Origin: a virus
Taxonomy: Duplodnaviria > Heunggongvirae > Uroviricota > Caudoviricetes
DNA length: 64,000 bases
Reading direction: 5' to 3' (one strand)
Virus record (IMG/VR): IMGVR_UViG_3300044712_000823
Location: 1 to 64,000 of that record
Position 1 is the first letter of the stretch. Each line of letters starts with the position of its first letter. Below, piece by piece: positions 10,176-48,936 of the stretch. A model generated the notes under the pieces. That model did not search any database. It was given only the letters and a program-made list of their open reading frames with translations, and was not told where the DNA came from. A program made the position numbers and the translations under genes.

Positions 10176-10364
10176 TTTTTCCTCTGTAGTTGAACAAGAT
10201 GATGGGTTATTCTGTTACGAGGAAACCCATCGAAACCCTAGTCAGCGTTTAGGCTGCCAATGCGAACTTTTCATCGTTTGCGTTTAGTTTGATTTACTTT
10301 TAACGACTATCTGTGTCGAGTTGTCCACTTCTGTACTTGTTGCCCTGTCGAAACCATGGCTGGC

Positions 10365-10478
10365 CCATCAGAAGTATACTAAACGTGGATCGTCCCTAAA
10401 TGCTTACTGAATTCTACAGTCAGCTTAGTATACTTCTGGTGGACCAGGCGGGAGTCGAACCCGCGTCCAGAACACTTT
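10365..10478 (-). ncRNA. tRNA-like 3' fragment (T-arm plus acceptor 3' half plus CCA) next to a 14-bp inverted repeat. Possible structured RNA.
   Basis: Minus-strand reading GCGGGUUCGACUCCCGCCUGGUCCACCA. No matching 5' acceptor strand. The inverted repeat is CAGAAGTATACTAA...TTAGTATACTTCTG. Confidence 0.25.
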
Positions 10479-10542
10479 TCTAGTTGCTTCATACAACCAT
10501 AGCCGCTAGTATAGCAGCTTTTTATTTAGTTGGCAAGCGTTT

Positions 10543-11685
10543 TTACCAGGGTTTTCCTGTACCGCGAAAATTACTGAAGCTTATTTGTCCGCTTGCTGGA
10601 ATCGTGATGTTTATTATCGCACTCTTCCTAACTTTACATGTATATCCTTGTGAGGACTGTGTAAGTACCTCAAAAGAATATGTTTCACCATTCACTGTGG
10701 TCGATGAGGGTGGTGGCACATTACCAGAAAGACTCAAGTTTGCAACTATATCACCGTTCCAAAAAACTTTTCCGAATGAGGTTCCTGGAGTCGTCAATGT
10801 ATCCCAGAACATACCATATGTCAACTTTCCCGATGCTGCTGATTGGAACTGGTCAATGGAACCCAACAATAAAGTGTTGGAAGAAACGGAAGATAAATTT
10901 GCAGGTAAGCTTATGGTTGAGGGTGTTACGAATGTGCCACCACGGTAATAACTGCTGACACTATATGGTTTTCCTGTATTACCGAAGATTGTCGCCAAAG
11001 TGTCTAGGTTTATTGTTGCATTATCGTCTATTCTATTTCTAAGCCAAATTATGGCCTCCATATAATTTCTAGAATCCGACGACGATTGATTGTACCTTTG
11101 TGGTAGAGGTGATTGAAGGTAATTTATTGAATAAAAATTTCCGTTTGATGAATTTGTGTAACGAGTGCCAAAGGAAGTCAGTGAGCGACTGATTGATCCT
11201 GTGTGTGAGAATACAAAAATTGAATTTGAATTTGAAAGTACAAAGTTATTTGCGGTCGAAGTCGTCGGCTCACCCATACTGAAAATAAACAAATCTCTAC
11301 ATTTCACTAATGTTTTATTTTCTATGAGACCATCTGTCGTAGAATAGACTGTAGGACACACTAATGATGCACCGGAAGGTGGAATTGCAGCTAATGCTAC
11401 AGCCGCATTGTCTGCATTGATTTGTCCAACATCTATACCTTTAGAAGCAACATTTATTAGTGTACCAACTGTTGTTCCCGGAGAACTCGGATCGAAACCG
11501 TTTGCAATCAATGCAATCGTTCCATTACCAGATGTGGTAATTATCGCACTTCTTGCATTGATAAATGTGTTCGATCTGACCAAAAAGTCACCAACAACAG
11601 TTATGTTTCCTGTTATAATAACGTCATTATTGGTTCTCAGATTGTAGTTGGTGTATGTTCCACCTGTTATGGTAGTTGTTGCCAT
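10543..11685 (-). CDS. Tail-fibre/adhesin-like protein (Ser/Thr/Asn-rich).
   Basis: Composition and repeats typical of receptor-binding fibre proteins. Confidence 0.4.
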   Translation of the reverse strand: MATTTITGGTYTNYNLRTNNDVIITGNITVVGDFLVRSNTFINARSAIITTSGNGTIALIANGFDPSSPGTTVGTLINVASKGIDVGQINADNAAVALAAIPPSGASLVCPTVYSTTDGLIENKTLVKCRDLFIFSMGEPTTSTANNFVLSNSNSIFVFSHTGSISRSLTSFGTRYTNSSNGNFYSINYLQSPLPQRYNQSSSDSRNYMEAIIWLRNRIDDNATINLDTLATIFGNTGKPYSVSSYYRGGTFVTPSTISLPANLSSVSSNTLLLGSIDQFQSAASGKLTYGMFWDTLTTPGTSFGKVFWNGDIVANLSLSGNVPPPSSTTVNGETYSFEVLTQSSQGYTCKVRKSAIINITIPASGQISFSNFRGTGKPW

Positions 11686-40983: not shown

Positions 40984-41188
40984 ACTCTTTTTCCATACTC
41001 AAACAAACCTCACGGGCTTGATTTCGTGTCAGTTCCTTGTGGGGATATTTGTAAACAAAGTCGGAACATTCTTTGATAATCAAATTGGCGAATTCTTGTG
41101 GGTCGAAATAAGTATGCAATTTCAATACATGGAGTGTATTCCTATCTCCACCAGCCTTAAAGAATAGTTCATAAATTCGTTCATTCAT
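40961..41188 (-). CDS. Small paralogous-family protein.
   Basis: About 100 bp near-identical to 38680–38777. Confidence 0.5.
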   Translation of the reverse strand: MNERIYELFFKAGGDRNTLHVLKLHTYFDPQEFANLIIKECSDFVYKYPHKELTRNQAREVCLSMEKEFGIEENE

Positions 41189-41191
41189 TGT

Positions 41192-41728
41192 TTAAACTCC
41201 GATATACTTAGATGCTTCAGCATGAAGACCACGGTCGCCTTTTGTCATAACTTCGAGGAGAAGCCTTTTCTCGGCGAGATAAGTCTTGGCAAACCCAGGA
41301 TCATACTGCATAATAGATTTACTATTAGAGATAAGATCAGCAAGTTTAATTGTCTGAGCTTCAGCAGGTGCATCCGCAGTATGAGCACGATCAATTGCTT
41401 TACGGTGTGCCCTATTACCGTCTTCAGGGCGACTTACATCAGTGAGCCAACCAACAAGGCGAGCAATATCAATACCAAACGCCATATGAATATCATTAAA
41501 TGTGCAACCAGTATCTTCGACAACATCATGGAGCCATGCAGCAGCAACCATCTCATGCGTAGAACCAGGAACAGAAGCCACAATACTAGCCACCTCAGCA
41601 GGGTGAACAATATAAGATTCACCTGTATATTTACGCTTTTGACCGACAGCAGCATGAGCCGCCATTGCATATACTTGCGCCTTTTGTACAATATCCATAC
41701 CAGTAAGTTCCATTGTAAAGCATTGCAT
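41192..41728 (-). CDS. HD-domain (p)ppGpp hydrolase (SpoT/Mesh1-like small alarmone hydrolase). Start uncertain.
   Basis: YIVHPAEVA...AAWLHDVVEDTG matches the RelA/SpoT HD motif. Confidence 0.65.
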   Translation of the reverse strand: MQCFTMELTGMDIVQKAQVYAMAAHAAVGQKRKYTGESYIVHPAEVASIVASVPGSTHEMVAAAWLHDVVEDTGCTFNDIHMAFGIDIARLVGWLTDVSRPEDGNRAHRKAIDRAHTADAPAEAQTIKLADLISNSKSIMQYDPGFAKTYLAEKRLLLEVMTKGDRGLHAEASKYIGV

Positions 41729-41744
41729 GATTACTCCTTATTCC

Positions 41745-41957
41745 TTATTCCGTATTATCCGCAACAAAATCAATCTCGGTATGACTCAGAATCACCCGTT
41801 CCCGCATTGCACCAAATACCTCAATAGGGTTATCCAGAACTACGGTGTGTTTAATATCACCACCATATGCAATGCGAGACAATTCTACAGTACCAGACAC
41901 AATAAACCTGTTCAGATACTTACCACGAACAAACATATTTTCAAGAACCCAACTCAT
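41745..41957 (-). CDS. Small protein; paralog of 35643..35858.
   Basis: Paralogy. Confidence 0.45.
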   Translation of the reverse strand: MSWVLENMFVRGKYLNRFIVSGTVELSRIAYGGDIKHTVVLDNPIEVFGAMRERVILSHTEIDFVADNTE

Positions 41958-42109
41958 TCTATATCCTCCAGAGATTGAATTTGAATGTCCAATTCTTCAG
42001 AGGACATATTAACCAAATCAGCGATAAAACCAACAAATTGGTCATTATCACCAATGCCAATATGCATCATTTTATCAATAATATAAACAATCTTTTCCGC
42101 ACAATTCAT
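41954..42109 (-). CDS. Small protein (51 aa).
   Basis: Start reset downstream of the P5 transcription start. AGGAG-7-ATG. Confidence 0.35.
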   Translation of the reverse strand: MNCAEKIVYIIDKMMHIGIGDNDQFVGFIADLVNMSSEELDIQIQSLEDIE

Positions 42110-42134
42110 ACAAAATCTCCTAATCAATGAAGAC

Positions 42135-42163
42135 AGTATAACAGAACGTAAGGAGAATGGCAA
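42135..42163 (-). promoter_or_regulatory. Early promoter family copy P5 (TTGCCA-17-TATACT).
   Basis: Minus-strand reading TTGCCAttctccttacgttctgtTATACT. Confidence 0.5.
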
Positions 42164-42546
42164 TGTAGAGCAATAGTAGTCCATAGAAGAGGTCAACTAT
42201 TGTCCAGTGTATGGGAATGCATGGGGAAGAACCAGGAATGGAATAGGAGATGATTGAAACCAAAGGTAGTAACCAGTGTAGCAAGAACCATGCGTGGATT
42301 GAAAATGAAAGTGCTATTTATTGCGTGCCTACCGTGCGTTGTCGCGGGACCTGTCGCAGGTATGGTGTAGCACCTTAGTCTTAGTTGCTGTCTGCGAGCC
42401 AGGTTTTTCCTCAACCAGCCACTCTATCACAATCCACAGCGGTTGGCAATAGGTTTCCTCTCAGAACCTCAGAGAACCATAGAGCCAGGCTATAGCATAG
42501 TGGATTTCCGACCAATAGCAAAGTAAATTTTCTTTCACCCAGCTGG

Positions 42547-42576
42547 TTGCCAAACACCAGTGCCATGTGATATAAT
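42547..42576 (+). promoter_or_regulatory. Early promoter family copy P6 (TTGCCA-18-TGaTATAAT), plus strand. Points into an ORF-poor region.
   Basis: TTGCCAaacaccagtgccatgtgaTATAAT. Confidence 0.45.
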
Positions 42577-42682
42577 GGACCAAACGTCTTCCGCTGGCGG
42601 TAGTACCTTAGTGTTACACGGTATATAACGTGCAGCCTCCACGTCCATCCCCGTGTATTGCCGTTCGAATCATTGTAGTGGA

Positions 42683-42709
42683 TTATACCAGAACCGAACG
42701 GACTGGCAA
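42683..42709 (-). promoter_or_regulatory. Early promoter family copy P7 (TTGCCA-16-TATAAT), minus strand. Points into the ORF-poor region 42.2–42.65 kb.
   Basis: Minus-strand reading TTGCCAgtccgttcggttctggTATAAT. Confidence 0.5.
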
Positions 42710-42744
42710 GTAGAGCAAAAGTTCTCTACCTGCCAGGTGGGTCA

Positions 42745-42969
42745 TTAGTCTAGCAGGACCATGTACTCCGCTGGGAAGTGGGTGCGGAACCAGTCCAGAC
42801 CCTTGCGGACGGTCTTGTAGTCTCCGAACATCTCCGAGCCACGGATGGTGTCATACACTGCCACGGCGTCAGGAGGTAGGGTCACCGACTCACCAGAGAA
42901 GGGATTGGACACCAGCACCGGTGCATCGTCCAGGATTTTGCAGGGAAAGGGAAGGGTGCGAACGTTCAT
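42745..42969 (-). CDS. Hypothetical protein (GC-rich island).
   Basis: AGGAG RBS. GC-rich codon usage. Confidence 0.45.
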   Translation of the reverse strand: MNVRTLPFPCKILDDAPVLVSNPFSGESVTLPPDAVAVYDTIRGSEMFGDYKTVRKGLDWFRTHFPAEYMVLLD

Positions 42970-42980
42970 ATTTTACTCCT

Positions 42981-43508
42981 TTATTGAACCACGTTGAAAG
43001 GACCTTTGCGGTCATATTTTTTGGTGAAGAATGCCTCCACCTTGTCAGCGGTAGGACGGAATGCCTCAGCCTTGCCACCGTACCAGCCTTCGAAGCCACC
43101 ACGGTCAGGACGCGCCACGATGGTGAAGTCCTCATACTTGAGCTTGACCTTCTTGGGAGCCTTCGGTGCTTTGGGTGCCTTGGGCTCCTTGGCCACCTTT
43201 GCAGGCTTGGTTGTCGGTTTTGCCACCGAGGGCGTTTCCGGGACAGCCTGAGGTTGGACCTGACCTTTGAGGTGAGGCATGATGGCTTGGAGCCGCTCCA
43301 CGTTGGATTGTGCATACTTGACCAGGTCCTCACCGGTCAGCCCTTTGGACGTACCTTGTACAATGTAGTCGGCGAACAGGTGAGCCTCAGCCTTGTCCTT
43401 CGGTTTGACACCGACGGACTTTGCAATGCGGAAGTGGTCGGCAGGCTTCAGGGTTTTGAGGTACTTGACCAGCTGGTCGGCAGAGGTGAAGGTGGTTTGG
43501 ATTTCCAT
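42981..43508 (-). CDS. Hypothetical protein with KAPKAPKAPK linker.
   Basis: Start at MEIQ, downstream of the P8 transcription start. Lys/Ala/Pro-rich linker. Confidence 0.45.
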   Translation of the reverse strand: MEIQTTFTSADQLVKYLKTLKPADHFRIAKSVGVKPKDKAEAHLFADYIVQGTSKGLTGEDLVKYAQSNVERLQAIMPHLKGQVQPQAVPETPSVAKPTTKPAKVAKEPKAPKAPKAPKKVKLKYEDFTIVARPDRGGFEGWYGGKAEAFRPTADKVEAFFTKKYDRKGPFNVVQ

Positions 43509-43531
43509 GTGAGTTACTTTCGAATGAGTCA

Positions 43532-43560
43532 ATTATACCAGAATTTTCAAGCCGTGGCAA
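43532..43560 (-). promoter_or_regulatory. Early promoter family copy P8 (TTGCCA-17-TATAAT).
   Basis: Minus-strand reading TTGCCAcggcttgaaaattctggTATAAT. Confidence 0.5.
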
Positions 43561-44200
43561 CCGTCAGGCGGATAATTTTCGCCATCTTACGACCGTGGGC
43601 GGGGTAGCCGATGACCGCCACGGACTTATCGTAGCAGGTACGGCAGGTCAGGCACTTGCCACCTTGGTTGTATGCTGGGCAGACGGAAACACCACCGGGC
43701 GCGTTTTCCGCGTCGGGAATGATGGTAGAGCCATGCACGCCAGGCGTATAGGAACCATCCACGGCATCGGAAGAGAACCGAACCATTACATTGTCCAGCC
43801 GTTGCATGGCTGCAATGATGGGGGCAAACTTGGGGAATTTTGCCATGCGGGTGGGCAGCCAATGCTTGGTGTTGGGCGTACGGACCATCACCTGGTAGAT
43901 TTTGGTTGCCAATTCCAGGGAGTACATATCCCCCGAATCGAACCAACGGAAGTGGGTGTCCTTGCTCAATTGAGCCACCATGGCGTCAACCCAGCCGTCC
44001 TCTTGCCATGCGGCTTTATTGTCAGCACGGACAGCCTTGACGGCGCCGAAGTGGTACATGCCCGTGGTGGCGTAGCAACCAGAGCAGGCCGCAACCAGTT
44101 GGCCGTCCTTGCCAACCGAACCGGGGCAGGTCTCAATGGCTTGGAGGGACCAGGACTTGGTGCCTAGCTTGGAGGTCTTGGAGAGTTTGTTTTTCATCAT
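43547..44200 (-). CDS. Cys-rich metal-binding protein.
   Basis: Two Cys clusters (CPGS...CSGCY and CPAYNQGGKCLTCRTCY). Confidence 0.45.
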   Translation of the reverse strand: MMKNKLSKTSKLGTKSWSLQAIETCPGSVGKDGQLVAACSGCYATTGMYHFGAVKAVRADNKAAWQEDGWVDAMVAQLSKDTHFRWFDSGDMYSLELATKIYQVMVRTPNTKHWLPTRMAKFPKFAPIIAAMQRLDNVMVRFSSDAVDGSYTPGVHGSTIIPDAENAPGGVSVCPAYNQGGKCLTCRTCYDKSVAVIGYPAHGRKMAKIIRLTVATA

Positions 44201-44247
44201 GTGGTGTATTCTACAGGTTTCCTAGGTTCTGTCAACCAGTCCTTGGA

Positions 44248-44553
44248 TTAGTTGACCGGATTGGTGGGTTTCACCGTCACCGTCCAGCTGGAGAAGGAGA
44301 GACCGACCATGGTGTAACCATGGGCTGCCAGTGCCTTGATTAGGCGCTTGGCGATAATGTTAGCCATGGCGTTCTCCGCTTCGGTGCGGTTGATTGACGG
44401 CTCATGCAGGTGCATATCACCGGCATCCTCGCAGGTGAAAGGTACAACCAGCACCTCGCCCTGGTAGGCGTCCTTGTACGGCTTAGCCGCTTTGAAAAGA
44501 ATTGCGTTTTTCATGTGATGGAGTATACCACAACCGAAGGGAATGGCAACCAA
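44248..44553 (-). CDS. Hypothetical protein. May start at 44514 (MKNAILF).
   Basis: Two tandem upstream promoters (P9, P10). Confidence 0.4.
   Translation of the reverse strand: MVAIPFGCGILHHMKNAILFKAAKPYKDAYQGEVLVVPFTCEDAGDMHLHEPSINRTEAENAMANIIAKRLIKALAAHGYTMVGLSFSSWTVTVKPTNPVN
44522..44549 (-). promoter_or_regulatory. Early promoter family copy P9 (TTGCCA-16-TATACT).
   Basis: Minus-strand reading TTGCCAttcccttcggttgtggTATACT. Confidence 0.45.
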
Positions 44554-44648
44554 CCGATCATTGGAATTTCCTATTGATCCTGCGGACCCATAGTTGCGGT
44601 TCTAACGCCCAGCCTCCACGTCCATCCCAGTGCCTTTCGAATGGTCCT

Positions 44649-44676
44649 ATTATACCAGAACCGAGGACCCCGGCAA
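44649..44676 (-). promoter_or_regulatory. Early promoter family copy P10 (TTGCCG-16-TATAAT).
   Basis: Minus-strand reading TTGCCGgggtcctcggttctggTATAAT. Confidence 0.45.
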
Positions 44677-44716
44677 CCAATACCCTACCGCTCCGCTGGA
44701 GAACTATAGTTCTACA

Positions 44717-44744
44717 TTGCCATTTCCTCCGGTTCTGTCATAAT
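44717..44744 (+). promoter_or_regulatory. Early promoter family copy P11 (TTGCCA-16-CATAAT).
   Basis: TTGCCAtttcctccggttctgtCATAAT. ATG 8 nt downstream (leaderless). Confidence 0.5.
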
Positions 44745-44751
44745 CCACTCC

Positions 44752-44949
44752 ATGATGAATAGCAAAACAAAACCCTATACCGAATCCGTTGCAACCCGTC
44801 TCCCCGCTGGCCTGACCAGTGAAAAGGACCTGTGGACTGAAATCTACAAAATCGTGGAAGCCGACCTCGGCAAGAAAAGAGCATTCTACATGATGAACTA
44901 CAGTGAGGACTTCTTTCCTGATGTAATGCACGACTACAAATACCTGTAA
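44752..44949 (+). CDS. Small protein (65 aa); likely leaderless mRNA.
   Basis: Starts ~8 nt after the -10 of P11. Confidence 0.4.
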   Translation: MMNSKTKPYTESVATRLPAGLTSEKDLWTEIYKIVEADLGKKRAFYMMNYSEDFFPDVMHDYKYL

Positions 44950-44974
44950 ACTCTTGAAAACGAAAGGTTACAAA

Positions 44975-45187
44975 ATGAATCGCATTAGCCAAAATGGTTG
45001 GACTCTCCGCCGCTCCAACAACCAGCCGGTGCTGGTGAATCAGGCAGCCATAAGCTTCCGTGGTGACATAGCCACCATTGTGGGTGGACGCCCTCCTACC
45101 CACTTTGGTTCAACCGGTAGGGTCTGGACCAAGGCTGGTGGGGAATACTTCCCTTCGGTCTTTGACCTTGAGTGGGTGAAAGACTAA
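44975..45187 (+). CDS. Small protein (70 aa).
   Basis: AAAGG-8-ATG. The ORF track extends to a TTG at 44954. Confidence 0.4.
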   Translation: MNRISQNGWTLRRSNNQPVLVNQAAISFRGDIATIVGGRPPTHFGSTGRVWTKAGGEYFPSVFDLEWVKD

Positions 45188-45215
45188 CCAATCCGGTCAA
45201 CTATCCGACGGATGG

Positions 45216-45243
45216 TTGCCAAATCCTCCAGACCTGTCATAAT
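45216..45243 (+). promoter_or_regulatory. Early promoter family copy P13 (TTGCCA-16-CATAAT).
   Basis: GGTTGCCAaatcctccagacctgtCATAATCC. Almost identical to P14 and P15. Confidence 0.55.
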
Positions 45244-45281
45244 CCATTCCATAGTAAATCAACAAAGCAAAGGAAACAAAA

Positions 45282-45509
45282 ATGTCTCAAGGCTACAATG
45301 GCTGGACCAACCGCGAAACCTGGTTGGTTAACGTTTGGTTCAATCCGGAATCCCGTGAGGATGTGGAGGATGCACGGTCCATCCTGGAGGAACAATATGA
45401 TTCCATGACCGATGGTCCCCTGAAGGACATGGTTGCCCTGTCCGAGGTGGACTGGGACCAGCTGCTGGAACACTTCGAAGAGGAAGAGGATGAGGAGGAC
45501 GAGGAATGA
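45282..45509 (+). CDS. Small acidic protein with poly-Glu/Asp C-terminal tail. Candidate DNA-mimic-like early protein.
   Basis: NGWTNRETWLVNVW N-terminus. C-terminus EEEEDEEDEE. AAAGGAAAC RBS. Confidence 0.45.
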   Translation: MSQGYNGWTNRETWLVNVWFNPESREDVEDARSILEEQYDSMTDGPLKDMVALSEVDWDQLLEHFEEEEDEEDEE

Positions 45510-45718
45510 GCGTAGTCCGTAACCGGTTGCCCGGTTCAACCGGGTCCATAACCGAGCATTGGACCTCGGAATCACCGCAAGCCATCCAGGACCTGTTCCA
45601 GCAGGAGGTGACCAACTATCCTACAGGTGGTTATGGCACCATGCTCACCGGCATCCATGCCGATCCGACCGGTCTCCTATGGCATGCCAGGTTCTATCGC
45701 ATGGCATCTTGCGATTGA
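45506..45718 (+). CDS. Small protein (70 aa).
   Basis: ATGA overlap with the upstream gene. Confidence 0.4.
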   Translation: MSVVRNRLPGSTGSITEHWTSESPQAIQDLFQQEVTNYPTGGYGTMLTGIHADPTGLLWHARFYRMASCD

Positions 45719-45738
45719 AAATTCCAATGGCAACATTC

Positions 45739-45766
45739 TTGCCATTTCCTCCAGCCCTGTCATAAT
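45739..45766 (+). promoter_or_regulatory. Early promoter family copy P12.
   Basis: TTGCCAtttcctccagccctgtCATAAT. Confidence 0.5.
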
Positions 45767-45803
45767 CCATTCCATAGTAAATCAACCGCTGAAAGGAAAG
45801 CAG

Positions 45804-45998
45804 ATGAGTGTAATCGACAACCTGATTCTGGACATCCAGAAGGACATTACCGAAGGTCGCCTGACCTTCCGTGAAATCGCCGACCTGCGCGGCATCCCGT
45901 TTGACTGGGTGGATATGGTTGCTCTGGAGATGGCTCGCCAAGGTGAGGATGATCCGGAATACCTGGACTCTGACGCATACCTGGAGACGCTGGAATGA
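45804..45998 (+). CDS. Small acidic protein (64 aa).
   Basis: AAAGGAAAG RBS. The ORF track start at 45627 runs through promoter P12. Confidence 0.4.
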   Translation: MSVIDNLILDIQKDITEGRLTFREIADLRGIPFDWVDMVALEMARQGEDDPEYLDSDAYLETLE

Positions 45999-46156
45999 AC
46001 CGCTACACCTTGATCCTTTCCAACGGTCGGATCATGGTTTTCTCGGTGCTGGCCTGCGCTGAGGTCTTCCAGCAGGCCCACGGTGGAACGCTGGTAACCC
46101 AGCAAACCGGTCAAGAATCCAAGGAACAGTTGCCAAATCTTCCAGTCCTGTCATAA
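45995..46156 (+). CDS. Small hydrophobic protein (53 aa); reads through promoter P14.
   Basis: ATGA overlap. Hand-translated. Confidence 0.25.
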   Translation: MNRYTLILSNGRIMVFSVLACAEVFQQAHGGTLVTQQTGQESKEQLPNLPVLS

Positions 46157-46157
46157 T
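46130..46157 (+). promoter_or_regulatory. Early promoter family copy P14.
   Basis: TTGCCAaatcttccagtcctgtCATAAT. Confidence 0.5.
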
Positions 46158-46189
46158 CCATTCCATAGTAAATCACTGAGGACGACCAA

Positions 46190-46450
46190 ATGCTCAAAAT
46201 GATCTGGAATGACAAATCCCTCCTGACCATGACCGGCATCGCCGTGGCTCTGGTTGTGGCTGCCGTGGCTGCAACCATTTACAATGGCAACCAGTGGAAG
46301 GAATTCAGCCAGGAACATGAGTGCAAGGTGGTTGCCAAGCATGCCGGTACCACTGGCTATGGTATGACCAGCACCGGTAAGATGGGCATGGTCACCACTT
46401 CCGCAACCACTTCCTACCTTTGCAACGATGGTGTGACCTATACCCGTTAA
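46190..46450 (+). CDS. Small membrane protein (86 aa).
   Basis: One TM helix. RBS GAGGA. Confidence 0.45.
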   Translation: MLKMIWNDKSLLTMTGIAVALVVAAVAATIYNGNQWKEFSQEHECKVVAKHAGTTGYGMTSTGKMGMVTTSATTSYLCNDGVTYTR

Positions 46451-46481
46451 CCCAGACTTCCGGTCAACTATTCCCAGATGG

Positions 46482-46509
46482 TTGCCAAATCCTCCAGACC
46501 TGTCATAAT
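46482..46509 (+). promoter_or_regulatory. Early promoter family copy P15.
   Basis: TTGCCAaatcctccagacctgtCATAAT. Confidence 0.55.
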
Positions 46510-46546
46510 CCATTCCATGATGAAAAACGAAACGAAAGGAAACCAG

Positions 46547-46813
46547 ATGACTTACACCCCCGCCCAAGCGGCTGCCCTCCGTCACGCTGAAGTGACCCTG
46601 ACTCGCATGGCTCAGGAAGCCGCCCTCCGCTACGCCGAGGCTCTGGTCAAGTACCATGCCACCCGTCGCTTCGAAAAGTCTGAGGTGGCCTCTGAGCGCC
46701 AGATGGCACGGGATGCATGGACCATGGTCCTCATCACTGCTGAGGATGTGAACCAAGCCGCTGAGTGCCAGGCTCAGCTCACCGGCAACCAAATTGTGAA
46801 GGAGCTTGCATAA
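46547..46813 (+). CDS. Small alpha-helical protein (88 aa). Alternative leaderless start at 46517.
   Basis: AAAGGAAACCAG-ATG. Confidence 0.4.
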   Translation: MTYTPAQAAALRHAEVTLTRMAQEAALRYAEALVKYHATRRFEKSEVASERQMARDAWTMVLITAEDVNQAAECQAQLTGNQIVKELA

Positions 46814-46896
46814 TGAAAACTTTCGCAGTAGAACTGATCCAGGCAGCCATCCTGGCCACCCTTTTCTTCGGTCCCCTCTTCCTCTACATCCTCTGA
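46813..46896 (+). CDS. Hydrophobic micro-protein (27 aa).
   Basis: GAAGGAG-8-ATG. Single TM. Confidence 0.3.
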   Translation: MKTFAVELIQAAILATLFFGPLFLYIL

Positions 46897-46907
46897 AAGG
46901 TACTACC

Positions 46908-47117
46908 ATGGCAGCAACAGTCATTCCGGTTAAGGTCACGGACCGTAGGGTCCAGGAGCAATATGTGGTGGATGGTGCTCTGGTTACAATTTGCAAGCCA
47001 GCCAAGGCTCGGAAGTCGGAGAGGACTTGGAGAGGTGGCAGTAAGTGGTCAGTGGCTGGCTTGGGTGGTAAGGCACTGAGCCTGCGGAATGGCGGGCTGG
47101 CTAAGGCTAAAGGCTAA
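46908..47117 (+). CDS. Small basic protein (69 aa).
   Basis: GAAAGG-7-ATG. Confidence 0.4.
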   Translation: MAATVIPVKVTDRRVQEQYVVDGALVTICKPAKARKSERTWRGGSKWSVAGLGGKALSLRNGGLAKAKG

Positions 47118-47131
47118 GCCTAACACATTGG

Positions 47132-47160
47132 TACTAAAATTTGGACGGCAGTGTCCAAAA
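47132..47160 (-). terminator. Putative minus-strand terminator.
   Basis: UUGGAC-N6-GUCCAA hairpin followed by AUUUUAG. Confidence 0.35.
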
Positions 47161-47260
47161 ATTAAACCAATGTAAGTAATTTTCGCCTATGGCCCAAACT
47201 CGATTTTTCTGTTTTTTATTTTCTGGGGCCAAAACGCATTTTTCGAAATTTAGCACACCT

Positions 47261-47749
47261 CTAAATTTTTTCTCCGGACTCCAGCAGGTTTTCGAATTTT
47301 CCTGGAGGACTCTCCTGCGTATACTTTACATTGTTTAGCACGGGTCTGCCGTTCTCTGTCTTTCTGCACCACGGTATGTCTGTACGTACCACATAGGTCC
47401 ACTTATTGTAGTGCTGCATGAAGCTAATCATGTGCTGCGTACCTCTGGACTCTCCATCCCAAAATGCAATGAGTCCGTCTGCATAGACACCCATCTCTGC
47501 ATTCCGCATAGGACCCGCTTTCTTACCGTGGCGCTTCCAGTCGGCAGGAAAGAGCTTGACTGGAATGTTGCGCTCCTCTGCCCAACGTTCACCCAAGGAG
47601 TCAGCGCCTGCTGCACGGCCAGAAACAACCTCAGTAATGTGCAACCACGGTGGTATCGTTGCAAGGTAAGCCCTCAAATAATCATAATCATTAAAATCTC
47701 TGGATCCTGCAATGATTACTCTGCTCCGGCTGCTGCTTCTGCTGCTCAT
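47261..47749 (-). CDS. SLOG-superfamily (DprA/LOG-like) Rossmann nucleotide-binding protein.
   Basis: IIAGSRDF...VVSGRAAGAD...WDGESRGT motifs. Confidence 0.45.
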   Translation of the reverse strand: MSSRSSSRSRVIIAGSRDFNDYDYLRAYLATIPPWLHITEVVSGRAAGADSLGERWAEERNIPVKLFPADWKRHGKKAGPMRNAEMGVYADGLIAFWDGESRGTQHMISFMQHYNKWTYVVRTDIPWCRKTENGRPVLNNVKYTQESPPGKFENLLESGEKI

Positions 47750-47943
47750 TCTGGAATCATTCCCTGTGACTTAGCATAATAATAAATTGCGATACCGATG
47801 AGGTACAACACAACCTGCATCCAAAGACCGCGTGGGTTACCCCAGCTTCGGATGTTCCAAAGTACCCAAAGCATACCCAGTGCGAAACTGAATAGGTTTA
47901 GATGGAACGGGGAAATCGTCAGGAAATTCTCTAGTGTGTACAT
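47746..47943 (-). CDS. Small membrane protein.
   Basis: Two TM helices. Confidence 0.35.
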   Translation of the reverse strand: MYTLENFLTISPFHLNLFSFALGMLWVLWNIRSWGNPRGLWMQVVLYLIGIAIYYYAKSQGMIPE

Positions 47944-48034
47944 AGTCTCGGAGGCGCGGGGAGCGGGGAGTTCGCTCCGCTCAAAACTGTTAGTTAAGTT
48001 TCGCTAGTATAACACACAGGATGGAAAAGGCAAG

Positions 48035-48348: not shown

Positions 48349-48936
48349 CTAAGCACTAGGTGGTGAGTTGTCTTTTCCATACATTAACATCATTGCGTCA
48401 AAAATACAATCGTCAATCGGATTGTGCTTGGTGATATGGAGCTTGGAATCAAAGCCAGGATAGTCCACATCAGTGTATCCACGTTCAGTATTATAGAAGA
48501 TATCGATTGCAGTACGTACATCGCGCCAACGAGCGTAAGGGAAGATTGGATCAAGTCCCAACTGTTCTTCAATCGAATCTAACACAAGTTGATCTAGGTT
48601 ACCACGTGCCCATACATGGGACATTGGTTCCTTGAATTGGGAAGCCCATTCGCGCATACGTTCATATCCGACTTCAAACGACACATCTTCATCGGATGGG
48701 CGGAAGGATTTGTTTTTAACATTCGTGCATTGCTTCTTCCACCATTCAATCGTGGAAGGTGACATAGACCGTTTCAGGCGCTTGCGTTGTTCTTCTACAT
48801 CAAACTTCGCAAAGAATGCATTTGCGCGAAGGTCTTCATGTGAGGGTTTTTTGAGTGGATCAAAATGCACACATGCCATGGAAAGAATAATCGCATTAGA
48901 TTCTTTCCCTAGCGTTTCAACATCAAATACAAACAT
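48349..48936 (-). CDS. dexA: Exonuclease A (DexA).
   Basis: Similarity to T4 DexA (STIEWWKKQ...PSDEDVS). Confidence 0.75.
   Translation of the reverse strand: MFVFDVETLGKESNAIILSMACVHFDPLKKPSHEDLRANAFFAKFDVEEQRKRLKRSMSPSTIEWWKKQCTNVKNKSFRPSDEDVSFEVGYERMREWASQFKEPMSHVWARGNLDQLVLDSIEEQLGLDPIFPYARWRDVRTAIDIFYNTERGYTDVDYPGFDSKLHITKHNPIDDCIFDAMMLMYGKDNSPPSA

Follow-up and report, generated by a model that had tools for sequence, protein, structure and literature searches.

Gene and promoter layout of the GC-rich region

The window analysed in this work comprises 64,000 nucleotides (positions 1 to 64,000) of the IMG/VR virus record IMGVR_UViG_3300044712_000823, and it contains, at 42.2-47.1 kb, a region of small genes and repeated promoter cassettes whose base composition departs abruptly from that of the surrounding DNA (hereafter the backbone). 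The guanine-plus-cytosine (GC) content is 0.532 between positions 42200 and 47120 versus 0.386 for the remaining window, and same-length windows taken elsewhere (n = 492) have a mean of 0.384, a standard deviation of 0.018 and a maximum of 0.429. In 1-kb bins the values are 0.51-0.56 at 43-47 kb and 0.32-0.45 over the rest of the window, while the profile drawn with 200-nt windows climbs from near 42200 and drops abruptly at about 47120. An atypical composition is routinely taken as proof of recent horizontal transfer. In this case that reading seems largely wrong, and we regard it as probable, on balance, that the region is a cassette-organised hyperplastic region of the phage lineage's own whose composition is maintained.

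Judged by its genes, the record comes from an uncultured, freshwater T4-like myovirus. The PHROGs matches in the window include rIIA, the ribonucleotide reductase NrdA, a CobS-like ATPase, a glycosyltransferase and a peptidase (phrog_459), whose best cultured matches are the peptidases of Synechococcus myoviruses (cyanomyoviruses; 36% identity); the window holds no structural genes. Megablast gave no match to a near-identical cultured phage, several hundred related contigs were gathered from freshwater metagenomes, and a search for a sister genome via the peptidase in IMG/VR and the JGI metagenomes reached an identity of only 59% at best.

The genes of the region are the following (aa, amino acids):

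42745-42969, minus strand: i74, 74 aa, homologues found only in AT-rich phage contigs
42981-43508, minus strand: KAP, 175 aa, with a Lys/Ala/Pro (KAPKAP) linker KPAKVAKEPKAPKAPKAPKK between two domains
43547-44200, minus strand: GP88-family protein, 217 aa, with seven invariant cysteines (C25, C39, C42, C174, C183, C186, C189)
44248-44514, minus strand: i89, 88 aa
44752-44949, plus strand: i65, cassette 1, leaderless type
44975-45187, plus strand: i70a, cassette 1
45282-45509, plus strand: i75/DUF7249, cassette 2, 75 aa, acidic tail
45506-45718, plus strand: i70b, cassette 2
45804-45998, plus strand: i64, cassette 3
45995-46156, plus strand: i53, cassette 3
46190-46450, plus strand: i86, cassette 4, putative membrane anchor read from the hydrophobic N-terminus only
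46547-46813, plus strand: i88, cassette 5
46813-46896, plus strand: i27, cassette 5, hydrophobic peptide
46908-47117, plus strand: i69, cassette 5

The gene call made independently on a 4081-bp Logan contig (SRR26046407) matches for the genes covered there, and a Shine-Dalgarno sequence precedes most plus-strand genes. The initial annotation of this DNA had anticipated much of this picture: the abrupt and non-uniform GC profile, four minus-strand genes including a Cys-cluster and a KAPKAP-linker protein, about ten plus-strand micro-genes of 27-88 aa (exactly ten were found), and a repeated promoter cassette, which is present on the plus strand in five copies with that strand's genes grouped 2+2+2+1+3 behind them. 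It had also described the two arrays as convergent, and on this point it was mistaken. The two are transcribed apart from a central region at 44520-44750, with back-to-back promoters at 44522-44744: the minus-strand genes extend from 44514 to 42745 and the plus-strand genes from 44752 to 47117, and the plus array converges only with a backbone gene of the SLOG family, which it meets head-on at a terminator (47140-47159).

The predicted transcription signals and the adjacent backbone genes are listed below; "strict motif" denotes TTGCCN-N13-15-TGNYATAHT, PeSL stands for promoter-early stem-loop, and ORF for open reading frame.

42165-42744, minus strand: ORF-free 580-bp stretch at the downstream end of the backbone-strand block, with tail promoter and leader, antisense promoter and conserved non-coding block
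42547-42576, plus strand: antisense promoter, near-consensus, facing the tail promoter
42624-42689, minus strand: leader element, tail copy (ATTCGAAC..GGGGATGGACGTGGAGGCTG), repeat family D7
42682-42709, minus strand: tail promoter TTGCCA-N16-TATAAT with extended -10 box (motif and sigma-70 scans)
42705-42741, minus strand: stem-loop CTGGCAGGTAGAG-AACTTTTG-CTCTACTTGCCAG with the -35 box in its 3' arm, right after the i74 stop codon (PeSL-type order)
43532-43560, minus strand: KAP gene promoter (motif and sigma-70 scans)
44208-44235, minus strand: GP88 promoter TTGACA-16-TAGAAT (sigma-70 scan), with a stem-loop upstream at 44237-44262
44522-44549, minus strand: i89 promoter (strict motif)
44601-44656, minus strand: leader element, head copy; with the head promoter a direct repeat of the tail copy, 1977 bp apart
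44649-44676, minus strand: head promoter (strict motif)
44717-44744, plus strand: cassette 1, predicted to drive i65 and i70a
45189-45261, plus strand: cassette 2, promoter 45216-45243, stem-loop over the -35 box, predicted to drive i75/DUF7249 and i70b
45712-45784, plus strand: cassette 3, promoter 45739-45766, predicted to drive i64 and i53
46103-46175, plus strand: cassette 4, promoter 46130-46157, predicted to drive i86
46455-46527, plus strand: cassette 5, promoter 46482-46509, predicted to drive i88, i27 and i69
47140-47159, no strand assigned: predicted bidirectional terminator hairpin separating the plus-strand array from the SLOG gene
47261-47943, minus strand: SLOG/YAcAr gene (47261-47749; Pfam PF10686) and 65-aa ORF (47746-47943), promoter 48006-48033

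The strict motif matches the window 16 times against 0.05 expected, and 10 of these matches fall within 42.5-46.5 kb (binomial P = 8e-9), while a general sigma-70 scan returned 21 sites versus 7.7 expected. Eleven sites in the region fit 10-11 of the 12 sigma-70 consensus positions, and an extended -10 box is present at ten of the eleven. The motif is found outside the region too, before AT-rich backbone genes at 48033, 42163, 40709 and 31575 (rIIA) and before a transfer-messenger RNA (tmRNA) gene at 10536. This tmRNA is of the permuted, two-piece kind (10191-10550, minus strand), has the tag peptide ANDEKFALAA and a promoter of the TTGCCA/extended -10 type (10508-10536, minus strand), and may serve as a pointer to the host lineage.

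The five plus-strand cassettes are 70-86% identical over 56-73 nt and are spaced by 499, 523, 391 and 352 nt. As a composite, the cassettes of the window have the stop codon of the preceding gene followed by a hairpin (GGTCAACTATCC paired with GGATGGTTGCC, the 3' arm reaching into the -35 box), a promoter (TTGCCA, a 16-nt spacer with TG at its end, and (C/T)ATAAT), the conserved start region CCATTCC-A, and then either AAAGGAAAC-N4-ATG or ATG directly. In 5-6 of 10 cassettes a hairpin covers or adjoins the -35 box, and two cassettes lack one; only the hairpin at 42705-42741 beats shuffled controls (-26.6 kcal/mol, z = -3.9, equalled by 0 of 200 shuffles), and both hairpin arms, GGTCAACTATCC and GGATGGTTGCC, are kept in relatives. 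For GP88, i89, i65 and an alternative i88 start, the ATG lies 7 nt past the -10 box with no Shine-Dalgarno sequence (44200-44235, 44514-44549, 44744-44752 and 46509-46517), so that leaderless mRNAs are predicted; this CCATTCC-ATGATGAA arrangement is seen again in relatives.

As regards the proteins, Pfam families were matched by only two of the fourteen: the 217-aa protein belongs to GP88 (PF17338)/DUF7227 (95 bits, cut-off 24) and the 75-aa protein to DUF7249 (PF23907; 31 bits, cut-off 27). Both are families without known function, so that membership is uninformative on the role of the protein; a literature search on GP88 and DUF7249 returned nothing relevant. GP88 was also weighed as a radical SAM enzyme, a class with a CX3CX2C cluster motif and a partial TIM barrel, and the comparison spoke neither for nor against it. 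KAP has 125 metagenomic homologues, none with a name, no match in PDB or Pfam, and no relative in IMG/VR by peptide-pattern search. In PHROGs the proteins of the region matched only unknown-function families, apart from one marginal match of i86 to phrog_301 ("secreted protein", E = 0.003). Roles of the small proteins in host take-over or anti-defence are plausible by likeness to T4 early genes. None of the relatives has a homologue of the 284-aa ORF at 46151-47005 (minus strand), which runs antisense to i86-i69 and most probably is a mere shadow ORF opposite the GC-rich coding strand.

Among the neighbouring genes, the right flank includes, near the SLOG/YAcAr gene, a gene for an Rv2179c-like 3'-5' exoribonuclease (48349-48936, minus strand); an exact look-up of the SLOG protein sequence returned no record. 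On the left, the gene for an HD_4 (SpoT/RelA-type HD) phosphohydrolase (41192-41728, minus strand) has 271 relatives in viral contigs, of which the 80 kept are 66-87% identical and almost none have flanking genes in common with the window; it looks like a widely exchanged auxiliary gene.

Sharp borders of this sort might also arise if a GC-rich fragment of another genome had been misjoined during assembly, an explanation that we consider extremely improbable. The Logan contig is identical to the window over 41160-45240, spanning the left border, and the right border (i88/i69, an AT-rich element and SLOG) recurs at 69-80% DNA identity in three related contigs (L084, L356 and L357), so that the region is not an assembly artefact; moreover, the same promoter motif stands on either side of each border.

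Conservation, turnover and a promoter-proximal leader element

Synteny with the relatives places rIIA and o36444 on one side of the region and the peptidase, o53335, o53991, o54416 and the nrd genes on the other, with a variable interior; the region sits in a variable interval between conserved blocks and is thus hyperplastic in the T4 sense, as the initial annotation had proposed for this module of small, putatively early genes. To describe its conservation we used an unbiased sample of 31 loci reached via the peptidase, comprising 5 nearest relatives (51-54% identity) and 26 distant ones (43-46%). At this locus a GC-rich patch is present in each of the five nearest relatives, where 2.25-3.25 kb of windows exceed the background by 0.10 or more and 4-9 promoter motifs occur; four of the five clearly show the two divergent blocks, both of them GC-rich. 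Three contigs found via closer GP88 copies (83-86% identical) have a GC-rich patch and the same layout, at the same locus where the flanks are kept. Among the 26 distant relatives a substantial patch occurs in one and brief excursions in two, and the strict motif in none. On this distribution among the distant relatives, the region is accessory.

Gene content, on the other hand, differs between every pair of relatives compared, and GP88 itself is present in only one of the five nearest. One rearrangement concerns the block i89-GP88-KAP-i74, of 1977 bp, which is framed by two direct repeats, each a promoter with its 45-nt leader element. L084 has a single copy of this element, which aligns upstream of its core with the head copy of the window and downstream of the core with the tail copy; the block therefore lies exactly between the repeats, a pattern expected whether a circle was integrated or the block was deleted between the repeats. 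Between the same elements, L356 and L357 have different subsets of the block: GP88 alone in L356, and GP88, KAP and i74 in L357. In L352 a KAP-like gene lies outside, on the AT-rich backbone. The homology of i75 to L084 begins at the -10 box. In L084 and about 30 other relatives GP88 belongs to the opposite-strand array. A simple inversion of the GP88 block was considered and rejected: GP88 is found on the backbone strand also in L352, L356 and L357, and this is therefore one of two common arrangements and not a private inversion.

The leader element, ATTCGAAAGCAGGACTGGG(G/A)TGGAC...CTG, deserves separate attention as a conserved, promoter-proximal candidate control element. It gave 41 hits among the relatives and was found in 33 distinct variants directly behind a promoter, always on the backbone strand; in L179, L181 and L184, as in the window, the backbone-strand block has a copy at either end, head and tail. 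Further copies occur in L082-L118, L164, L178, L193, L205, L228 and L230, and head and tail sub-types bracket the backbone-strand GC-rich block. On the RNA-like strand its base use is 38% G versus 20% C. A conserved RNA fold was ruled out (RNAalifold, -0.08 kcal/mol), and so was the leader mini-ORF (MDVEAGR), whose length and sequence differ and whose Shine-Dalgarno sequence is not kept, no ORF being conserved beyond 6-7 codons. The antisense promoter at 42547-42576, kept in L084, L085, L352 and L356, faces the tail promoter at a distance of 130 nt; its predicted transcript would be antisense to the first 90 nt or so of the leader transcript.

Downstream, no gene was called at 42165-42744 on the Logan contig, and a non-coding block at 42225-42480 (minus strand) is kept in L352, L353 and L356 and weakly in L184, with an invariant core CAG(A/C)CA..AACTAAGACTAA and repeated GCGACA motifs. 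A structured RNA in the 42.2-42.7 kb interval was rejected on its weak consensus (-10.6 kcal/mol over 643 columns), tblastx revealed no pseudogene or coding signal there, and Rfam returned nothing at gathering thresholds in the whole region, only a chance-level CRISPR-repeat match (E = 1). At the other end, an AT-rich element (CAAACTCGATTTTTCTGTTTTTTATTTTCTGGGGCC, 47195-47230) flanked by GGCCC/GGGCC is 85-90% identical in most relatives, including those with 45% peptidase identity, and is invariably located just beyond the end of the opposite-strand array.

The T4 origins of replication use promoter transcripts; oriE, which contains iterons, needs an early promoter, and several origins are located where transcription diverges (PMC3016281). 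For this reason a role in replication or early control is possible for the leader element, and one might imagine that promoter, G-rich leader, facing antisense promoter and downstream non-coding block form a replication-origin or origin-control module, whose transcript would prime or open the DNA as at T4 oriE, oriF and oriG, with the small genes accumulated around it. Such a module, which would be additional to and not exclusive of the other readings, seems unlikely to us. It would account for the position of the leader directly after a promoter in all its variants, with neither a fold nor a longer ORF conserved, for its excess of G over C, and for its location at a transcriptional divergence point. 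It would also account for the exact DnaA boxes (TTATCCACA) that occur, in numbers of 1-4 and in a single orientation, 170-680 nt downstream of 12 of 29 leader elements in relatives and never upstream, against a background rate of 0.035 per kb. Against it, the window has no DnaA box within one mismatch at 42.1-42.7 kb (a two-mismatch scan was uninformative), neither an AT-rich unwinding element nor iterons are found at the leader sub-module, and DnaA is not known to be used in T4-type replication. Clusters of 2-4 exact boxes are located, for example, at L083 8333-8373, L181 16918-16941, L184 19294-19305, L193 10539-10585, L356 6201-6212 and L113 9638-9689; a DnaA-box cluster was also noticed about 300 bp upstream of GP88 in a GC-rich contig.

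Foreign or maintained composition

The GC-richness of the region is mostly a C-ending codon style and not a general GC shift. The pooled GC at the first, second and third codon positions (GC1/GC2/GC3) is 0.57/0.42/0.67 in the genes of the region and 0.47/0.34/0.34 in backbone genes; gene by gene, GC3 is 0.54-0.73 throughout the region and 0.27-0.40 in the neighbouring genes. A compositional shoulder extends to about 47.9 kb, with GC3 of 0.52-0.53 over the SLOG gene (47261-47749) and the adjacent ORF (47746-47943); the GC3 of SLOG is 0.53 in the window versus 0.39 in L084, at 77% protein identity. Most codons end in C (ACC 0.71, TTC 0.86, ATC 0.61, TGC 1.0, NCC 0.47-0.60), GGT (0.39-0.57) and CGT remain common, CTG makes up 0.54 of the Leu codons, A-ending codons are shunned, and NCG codons (0.13-0.18) are not enriched. 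Gly, Ala, Arg and Pro together account for 26% of the residues versus 20% elsewhere, in agreement with the shift in codon usage and amino-acid use described in the initial annotation.

The same style recurs in the patches of eight relatives with mostly different genes: C reaches 0.28-0.40 and G 0.17-0.28 at fourfold degenerate sites (C is 0.17 in the backbones), NCC is 0.33-0.47, and NCG is 0.10-0.17 except for 0.26 in L357. Taken jointly, the region and these eight patches have fourfold C of 0.28-0.49, NCC of 0.33-0.60 and GGT of 0.29-0.57, unlike the GC-rich phage contigs with GP88 homologues, where NCG is 0.34-0.36 and GGT 0.16-0.24. Two simple causes of the GC rise were discarded. A tRNA cluster is ruled out, the window having no tRNA and the single hit being the tmRNA at 10.2-10.5 kb. 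An effect of orientation opposite to the backbone, hinted at by low-GC3 GP88 copies on the backbone strand, is contradicted by the nearest relatives, in which both divergent blocks are GC-rich.

At third positions C is well above G in each of the two blocks, which have opposite orientations, so that the bias follows the coding strand, which points to translation rather than to a force acting symmetrically on the two DNA strands. Such a force, be it GC-biased repair of cassette recombination intermediates or a host-like composition evading silencers that bind AT-rich DNA, appears quite improbable as the cause. It would explain why the non-coding DNA of the region is also enriched (0.47 versus 0.37 GC in the backbone), why composition tracks location and not gene family, and why the substitution pattern is balanced; the region is also the densest in recombinogenic repeats. 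The coding-strand-specific enrichment and the lack of NCG enrichment speak against it, the non-coding DNA consists mostly of conserved promoters and leader elements that are constrained anyway, and no DNA-level mechanism of this kind is known in phages.

The initial annotation had regarded the region as a horizontally acquired island. What stands of this proposal is the accessory status, the turnover of genes and the sharing of GP88 and DUF7249 with GC-richer phages; what is not supported is a single foreign block, and on the explanation that we favour the composition is not the unameliorated mark of a recent foreign insertion. In its general form, the proposal would have the genes arrive, recently or in a steady influx, from GC-richer phages sharing the host, without having yet drifted to the AT-rich state, and we hold this to be rather unlikely. 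The abrupt borders are in its favour, as are the joint shift of all three codon positions, amino-acid use and non-coding DNA, the lack of a patch in most of the distant relatives and the rapid turnover of gene content. The same is true of the homologues themselves: those of GP88 at 60-68% identity reside in contigs of 45-60% GC, many of about 37 kb, and those of DUF7249 at 57-66% identity in contigs of 50-66% GC, in both cases with the gene matching the composition of its genome, and cultured GP88 homologues are found only in non-T4 phages.

Other observations are at odds with acquisition of this kind. The regulatory DNA inside the region, cassettes and leader elements alike, is native to the AT-rich clade: strict motifs number 71 per 528 kb in AT-rich relatives versus 1 per 567 kb in GC-rich phage contigs, and cassette DNA is still recognisable in relatives with only about 45% peptidase identity. 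The patch occupies the same locus in all the nearest relatives, and the GC-rich relatives use another codon style. The Pfam and PHROGs matches include no integrase, transposase or homing endonuclease, and in place of attachment sites the only flanking repeats are the phage's own promoter elements. The GP88 copies of AT-rich phages form one deeply diverged clade, apart from the copies of GC-rich contigs, with GC3 ranging from 0.20 to 0.71. A host-derived GP88 was also rejected, the matches in bacterial genome collections all being short contigs of metagenome-assembled genomes (55-62% identity) that resemble mis-binned phage DNA. The i74 family, moreover, was found only in AT-rich contigs, with no homologue in any GC-rich one, and yet its members are GC-rich when they reside in patches: copies in strong patches have GC3 of 0.57-0.73 and those outside them 0.23-0.49, while the weaker patches of the nearest subclade give 0.41-0.53. 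In the i74 tree the AT-rich copy of L085 (GC3 0.31, 76% identical) adjoins the GC-rich clade of the window.

The direction of substitution was examined through fourfold-site changes polarised by parsimony in sequence triplets, which give an implied equilibrium GC at these sites (GC4); whole-tree parsimony counts of GC-changing substitutions were dropped because their controls were biased, and per-site triplet rates were used instead. Backbone genes return 0.32-0.39, equal to their observed values, and GP88 in GC-rich contigs returns 0.58-0.69; both controls give back their own composition, and the triplet method thus recovers known compositions. For GP88 in AT-rich phages, nine triplets yielded 53 changes from strong to weak bases (G or C to A or T) versus 62 in the reverse direction, and an equilibrium GC4 of 0.53. 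Changes towards A or T are thus not in excess, whereas the backbone bias would predict about 65% of them, a value from which the nine-triplet set departs by about four standard errors.

Based on these data, we suggest that the region is the lineage's own cassette-organised, immediate-early hyperplastic region, the composition of which is maintained most likely by selection for efficiently translated codons; this is the explanation we favour, with moderate confidence. According to this scheme, about ten near-consensus promoters (TTGCCA, a spacer of 16-18 nt and TGnTATAAT) would be recognised by the sigma-70 RNA polymerase of the host immediately upon infection, firing outward from the central control region at 44520-44750 to give short transcripts of one to three genes, some with Shine-Dalgarno leaders and others leaderless, while the stem-loops over or just upstream of the -35 box might damp read-through. 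The repeated cassettes would provide homology for recombination, by which genes could be inserted, deleted and moved, as in the published PeSL mechanism, and single genes would come from and go to a wider phage gene pool, as suggested by GP88 and DUF7249, which are common to unrelated GC-richer phages. The C-ending style would be kept by selection for efficiently read codons in these strongly expressed early genes.

Several points weigh against this explanation. Translational selection alone leaves the raised GC1 and GC2, the amino-acid shift and the raised non-coding GC unexplained, and AT-rich backbone genes follow the same promoter type (the operon behind the promoter at 42163 has GC3 of 0.27-0.34). 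The polarised-substitution test is parsimony on fairly diverged sequences, and the strictest GP88 set (four triplets, 31 changes) gives an equilibrium of 0.44, which is not significantly off the backbone pattern. Promoter strength and timing are what we infer from matches to the consensus, and the best peptidase identity, 59%, is too low to place gains and losses in time. Finally, an unsampled donor pool with the same C-ending codon style is possible.

A broader version of the explanation we favour can be advanced tentatively. It is possible that the region represents a compositional compartment, a small "isochore", maintained by selection across a deep clade of freshwater T4-like phages, in which resident genes would be pushed to the C-ending, GC3-rich style and would relax to the AT-rich one once on the backbone. 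To this compartment would be coupled a hitherto undescribed control module (promoter, 45-nt G-rich leader, facing antisense promoter and, in relatives, DnaA-box clusters) that might act as origin or early switch and as the site of block-moving recombination.

The same gene family is GC-rich or AT-rich according to its location in the genome, and the GC-rich state bears no sign of decay. If our explanation is true, calling genomic islands by composition can, in phages, mistake expression compartments for foreign DNA. In addition, the shuffling of genes mediated by PeSL-like cassettes would be known not only from phages of enterobacteria and vibrios but also from a T4-like lineage of fresh water that is abundant and uncultured, and the roughly fourteen small, putatively early proteins behind strong predicted promoters would constitute a set for host take-over or anti-defence screens.

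Comparison with known systems

The leader/antisense sub-module, and this part only, resembles T4 oriE, oriF and oriG and the RNA II/RNA I pair of ColE1 in having a strong predicted promoter whose non-coding transcript would enter a conserved non-coding region, a facing promoter predicted to give an antisense RNA over the first 90 nt or so, a location at a divergence point and, in many relatives, DnaA boxes downstream. It differs from them in that the window has no DnaA boxes and the leader no conserved RNA structure, and T4-type phages are not known to use DnaA.

The region also shares with genomic islands and "morons" an atypical composition, sharp borders, accessory genes with their own promoters and a patchy distribution. 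It departs from them in the lack of a mobility gene, in regulatory DNA native to the recipient lineage, in the occurrence of the patch at the same locus in all the nearest relatives, in the absence of any sign of amelioration in the one family that can be examined for it (GP88), and in a codon style unlike that of the candidate donor phages. Within a single phage, expression-dependent codon usage has a reported precedent: Cowe and Sharp, in 1991 (J Mol Evol), are said to have found that T4 genes fall into discrete codon-usage groups tied to the time and strength of expression. In the window, however, the gap is far larger, it concerns one contiguous 5-kb compartment, and other genes behind the same promoter type do not have it.

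The closest likeness is to PeSLs, in which a repeated early promoter of the sigma-70 type is combined with a stem-loop that may overlap the -35 box (Arbiol et al. 2010, PMC2839356; Comeau et al. 2014, PMC4122927). Known from the T4-type phages RB49/phi1, T4/PST and KVP40/nt-1, they are located between the stop codon of a small gene and the Shine-Dalgarno sequence and start codon of the next one, are concentrated in hyperplastic regions, and mediate insertions, deletions and exchanges, partly by mini-circles excised between tandem copies (PMC2839356, PMC4122927). The window repeats the composite of stop codon, in part of the cassettes a stem-loop, sigma-70-type promoter and Shine-Dalgarno sequence with start codon, in a variable region between conserved core blocks and ahead of small ORFan genes, as tandem direct copies 350-520 nt apart; moreover, the differences among relatives are bounded by cassettes, including one block between direct repeats. 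The window differs from the described PeSLs in its consensus (TTGCCA with an extended -10 box), in a stem-loop that is mostly over the -35 box and weak in several copies, in the leaderless type of some units, and in cassettes that are recognisable across phages with core proteins only about 45% identical. It differs, above all, in a composition that sets the region apart from the rest of the genome by about +15 points of GC and +33 points of GC3, whereas a text search of the 2010 PeSL paper (PMC2839356) found composition not mentioned. The kind of region described here, a PeSL-type hyperplastic region, is already known; of more interest is the apparent conservation and maintenance of its compositional compartment.

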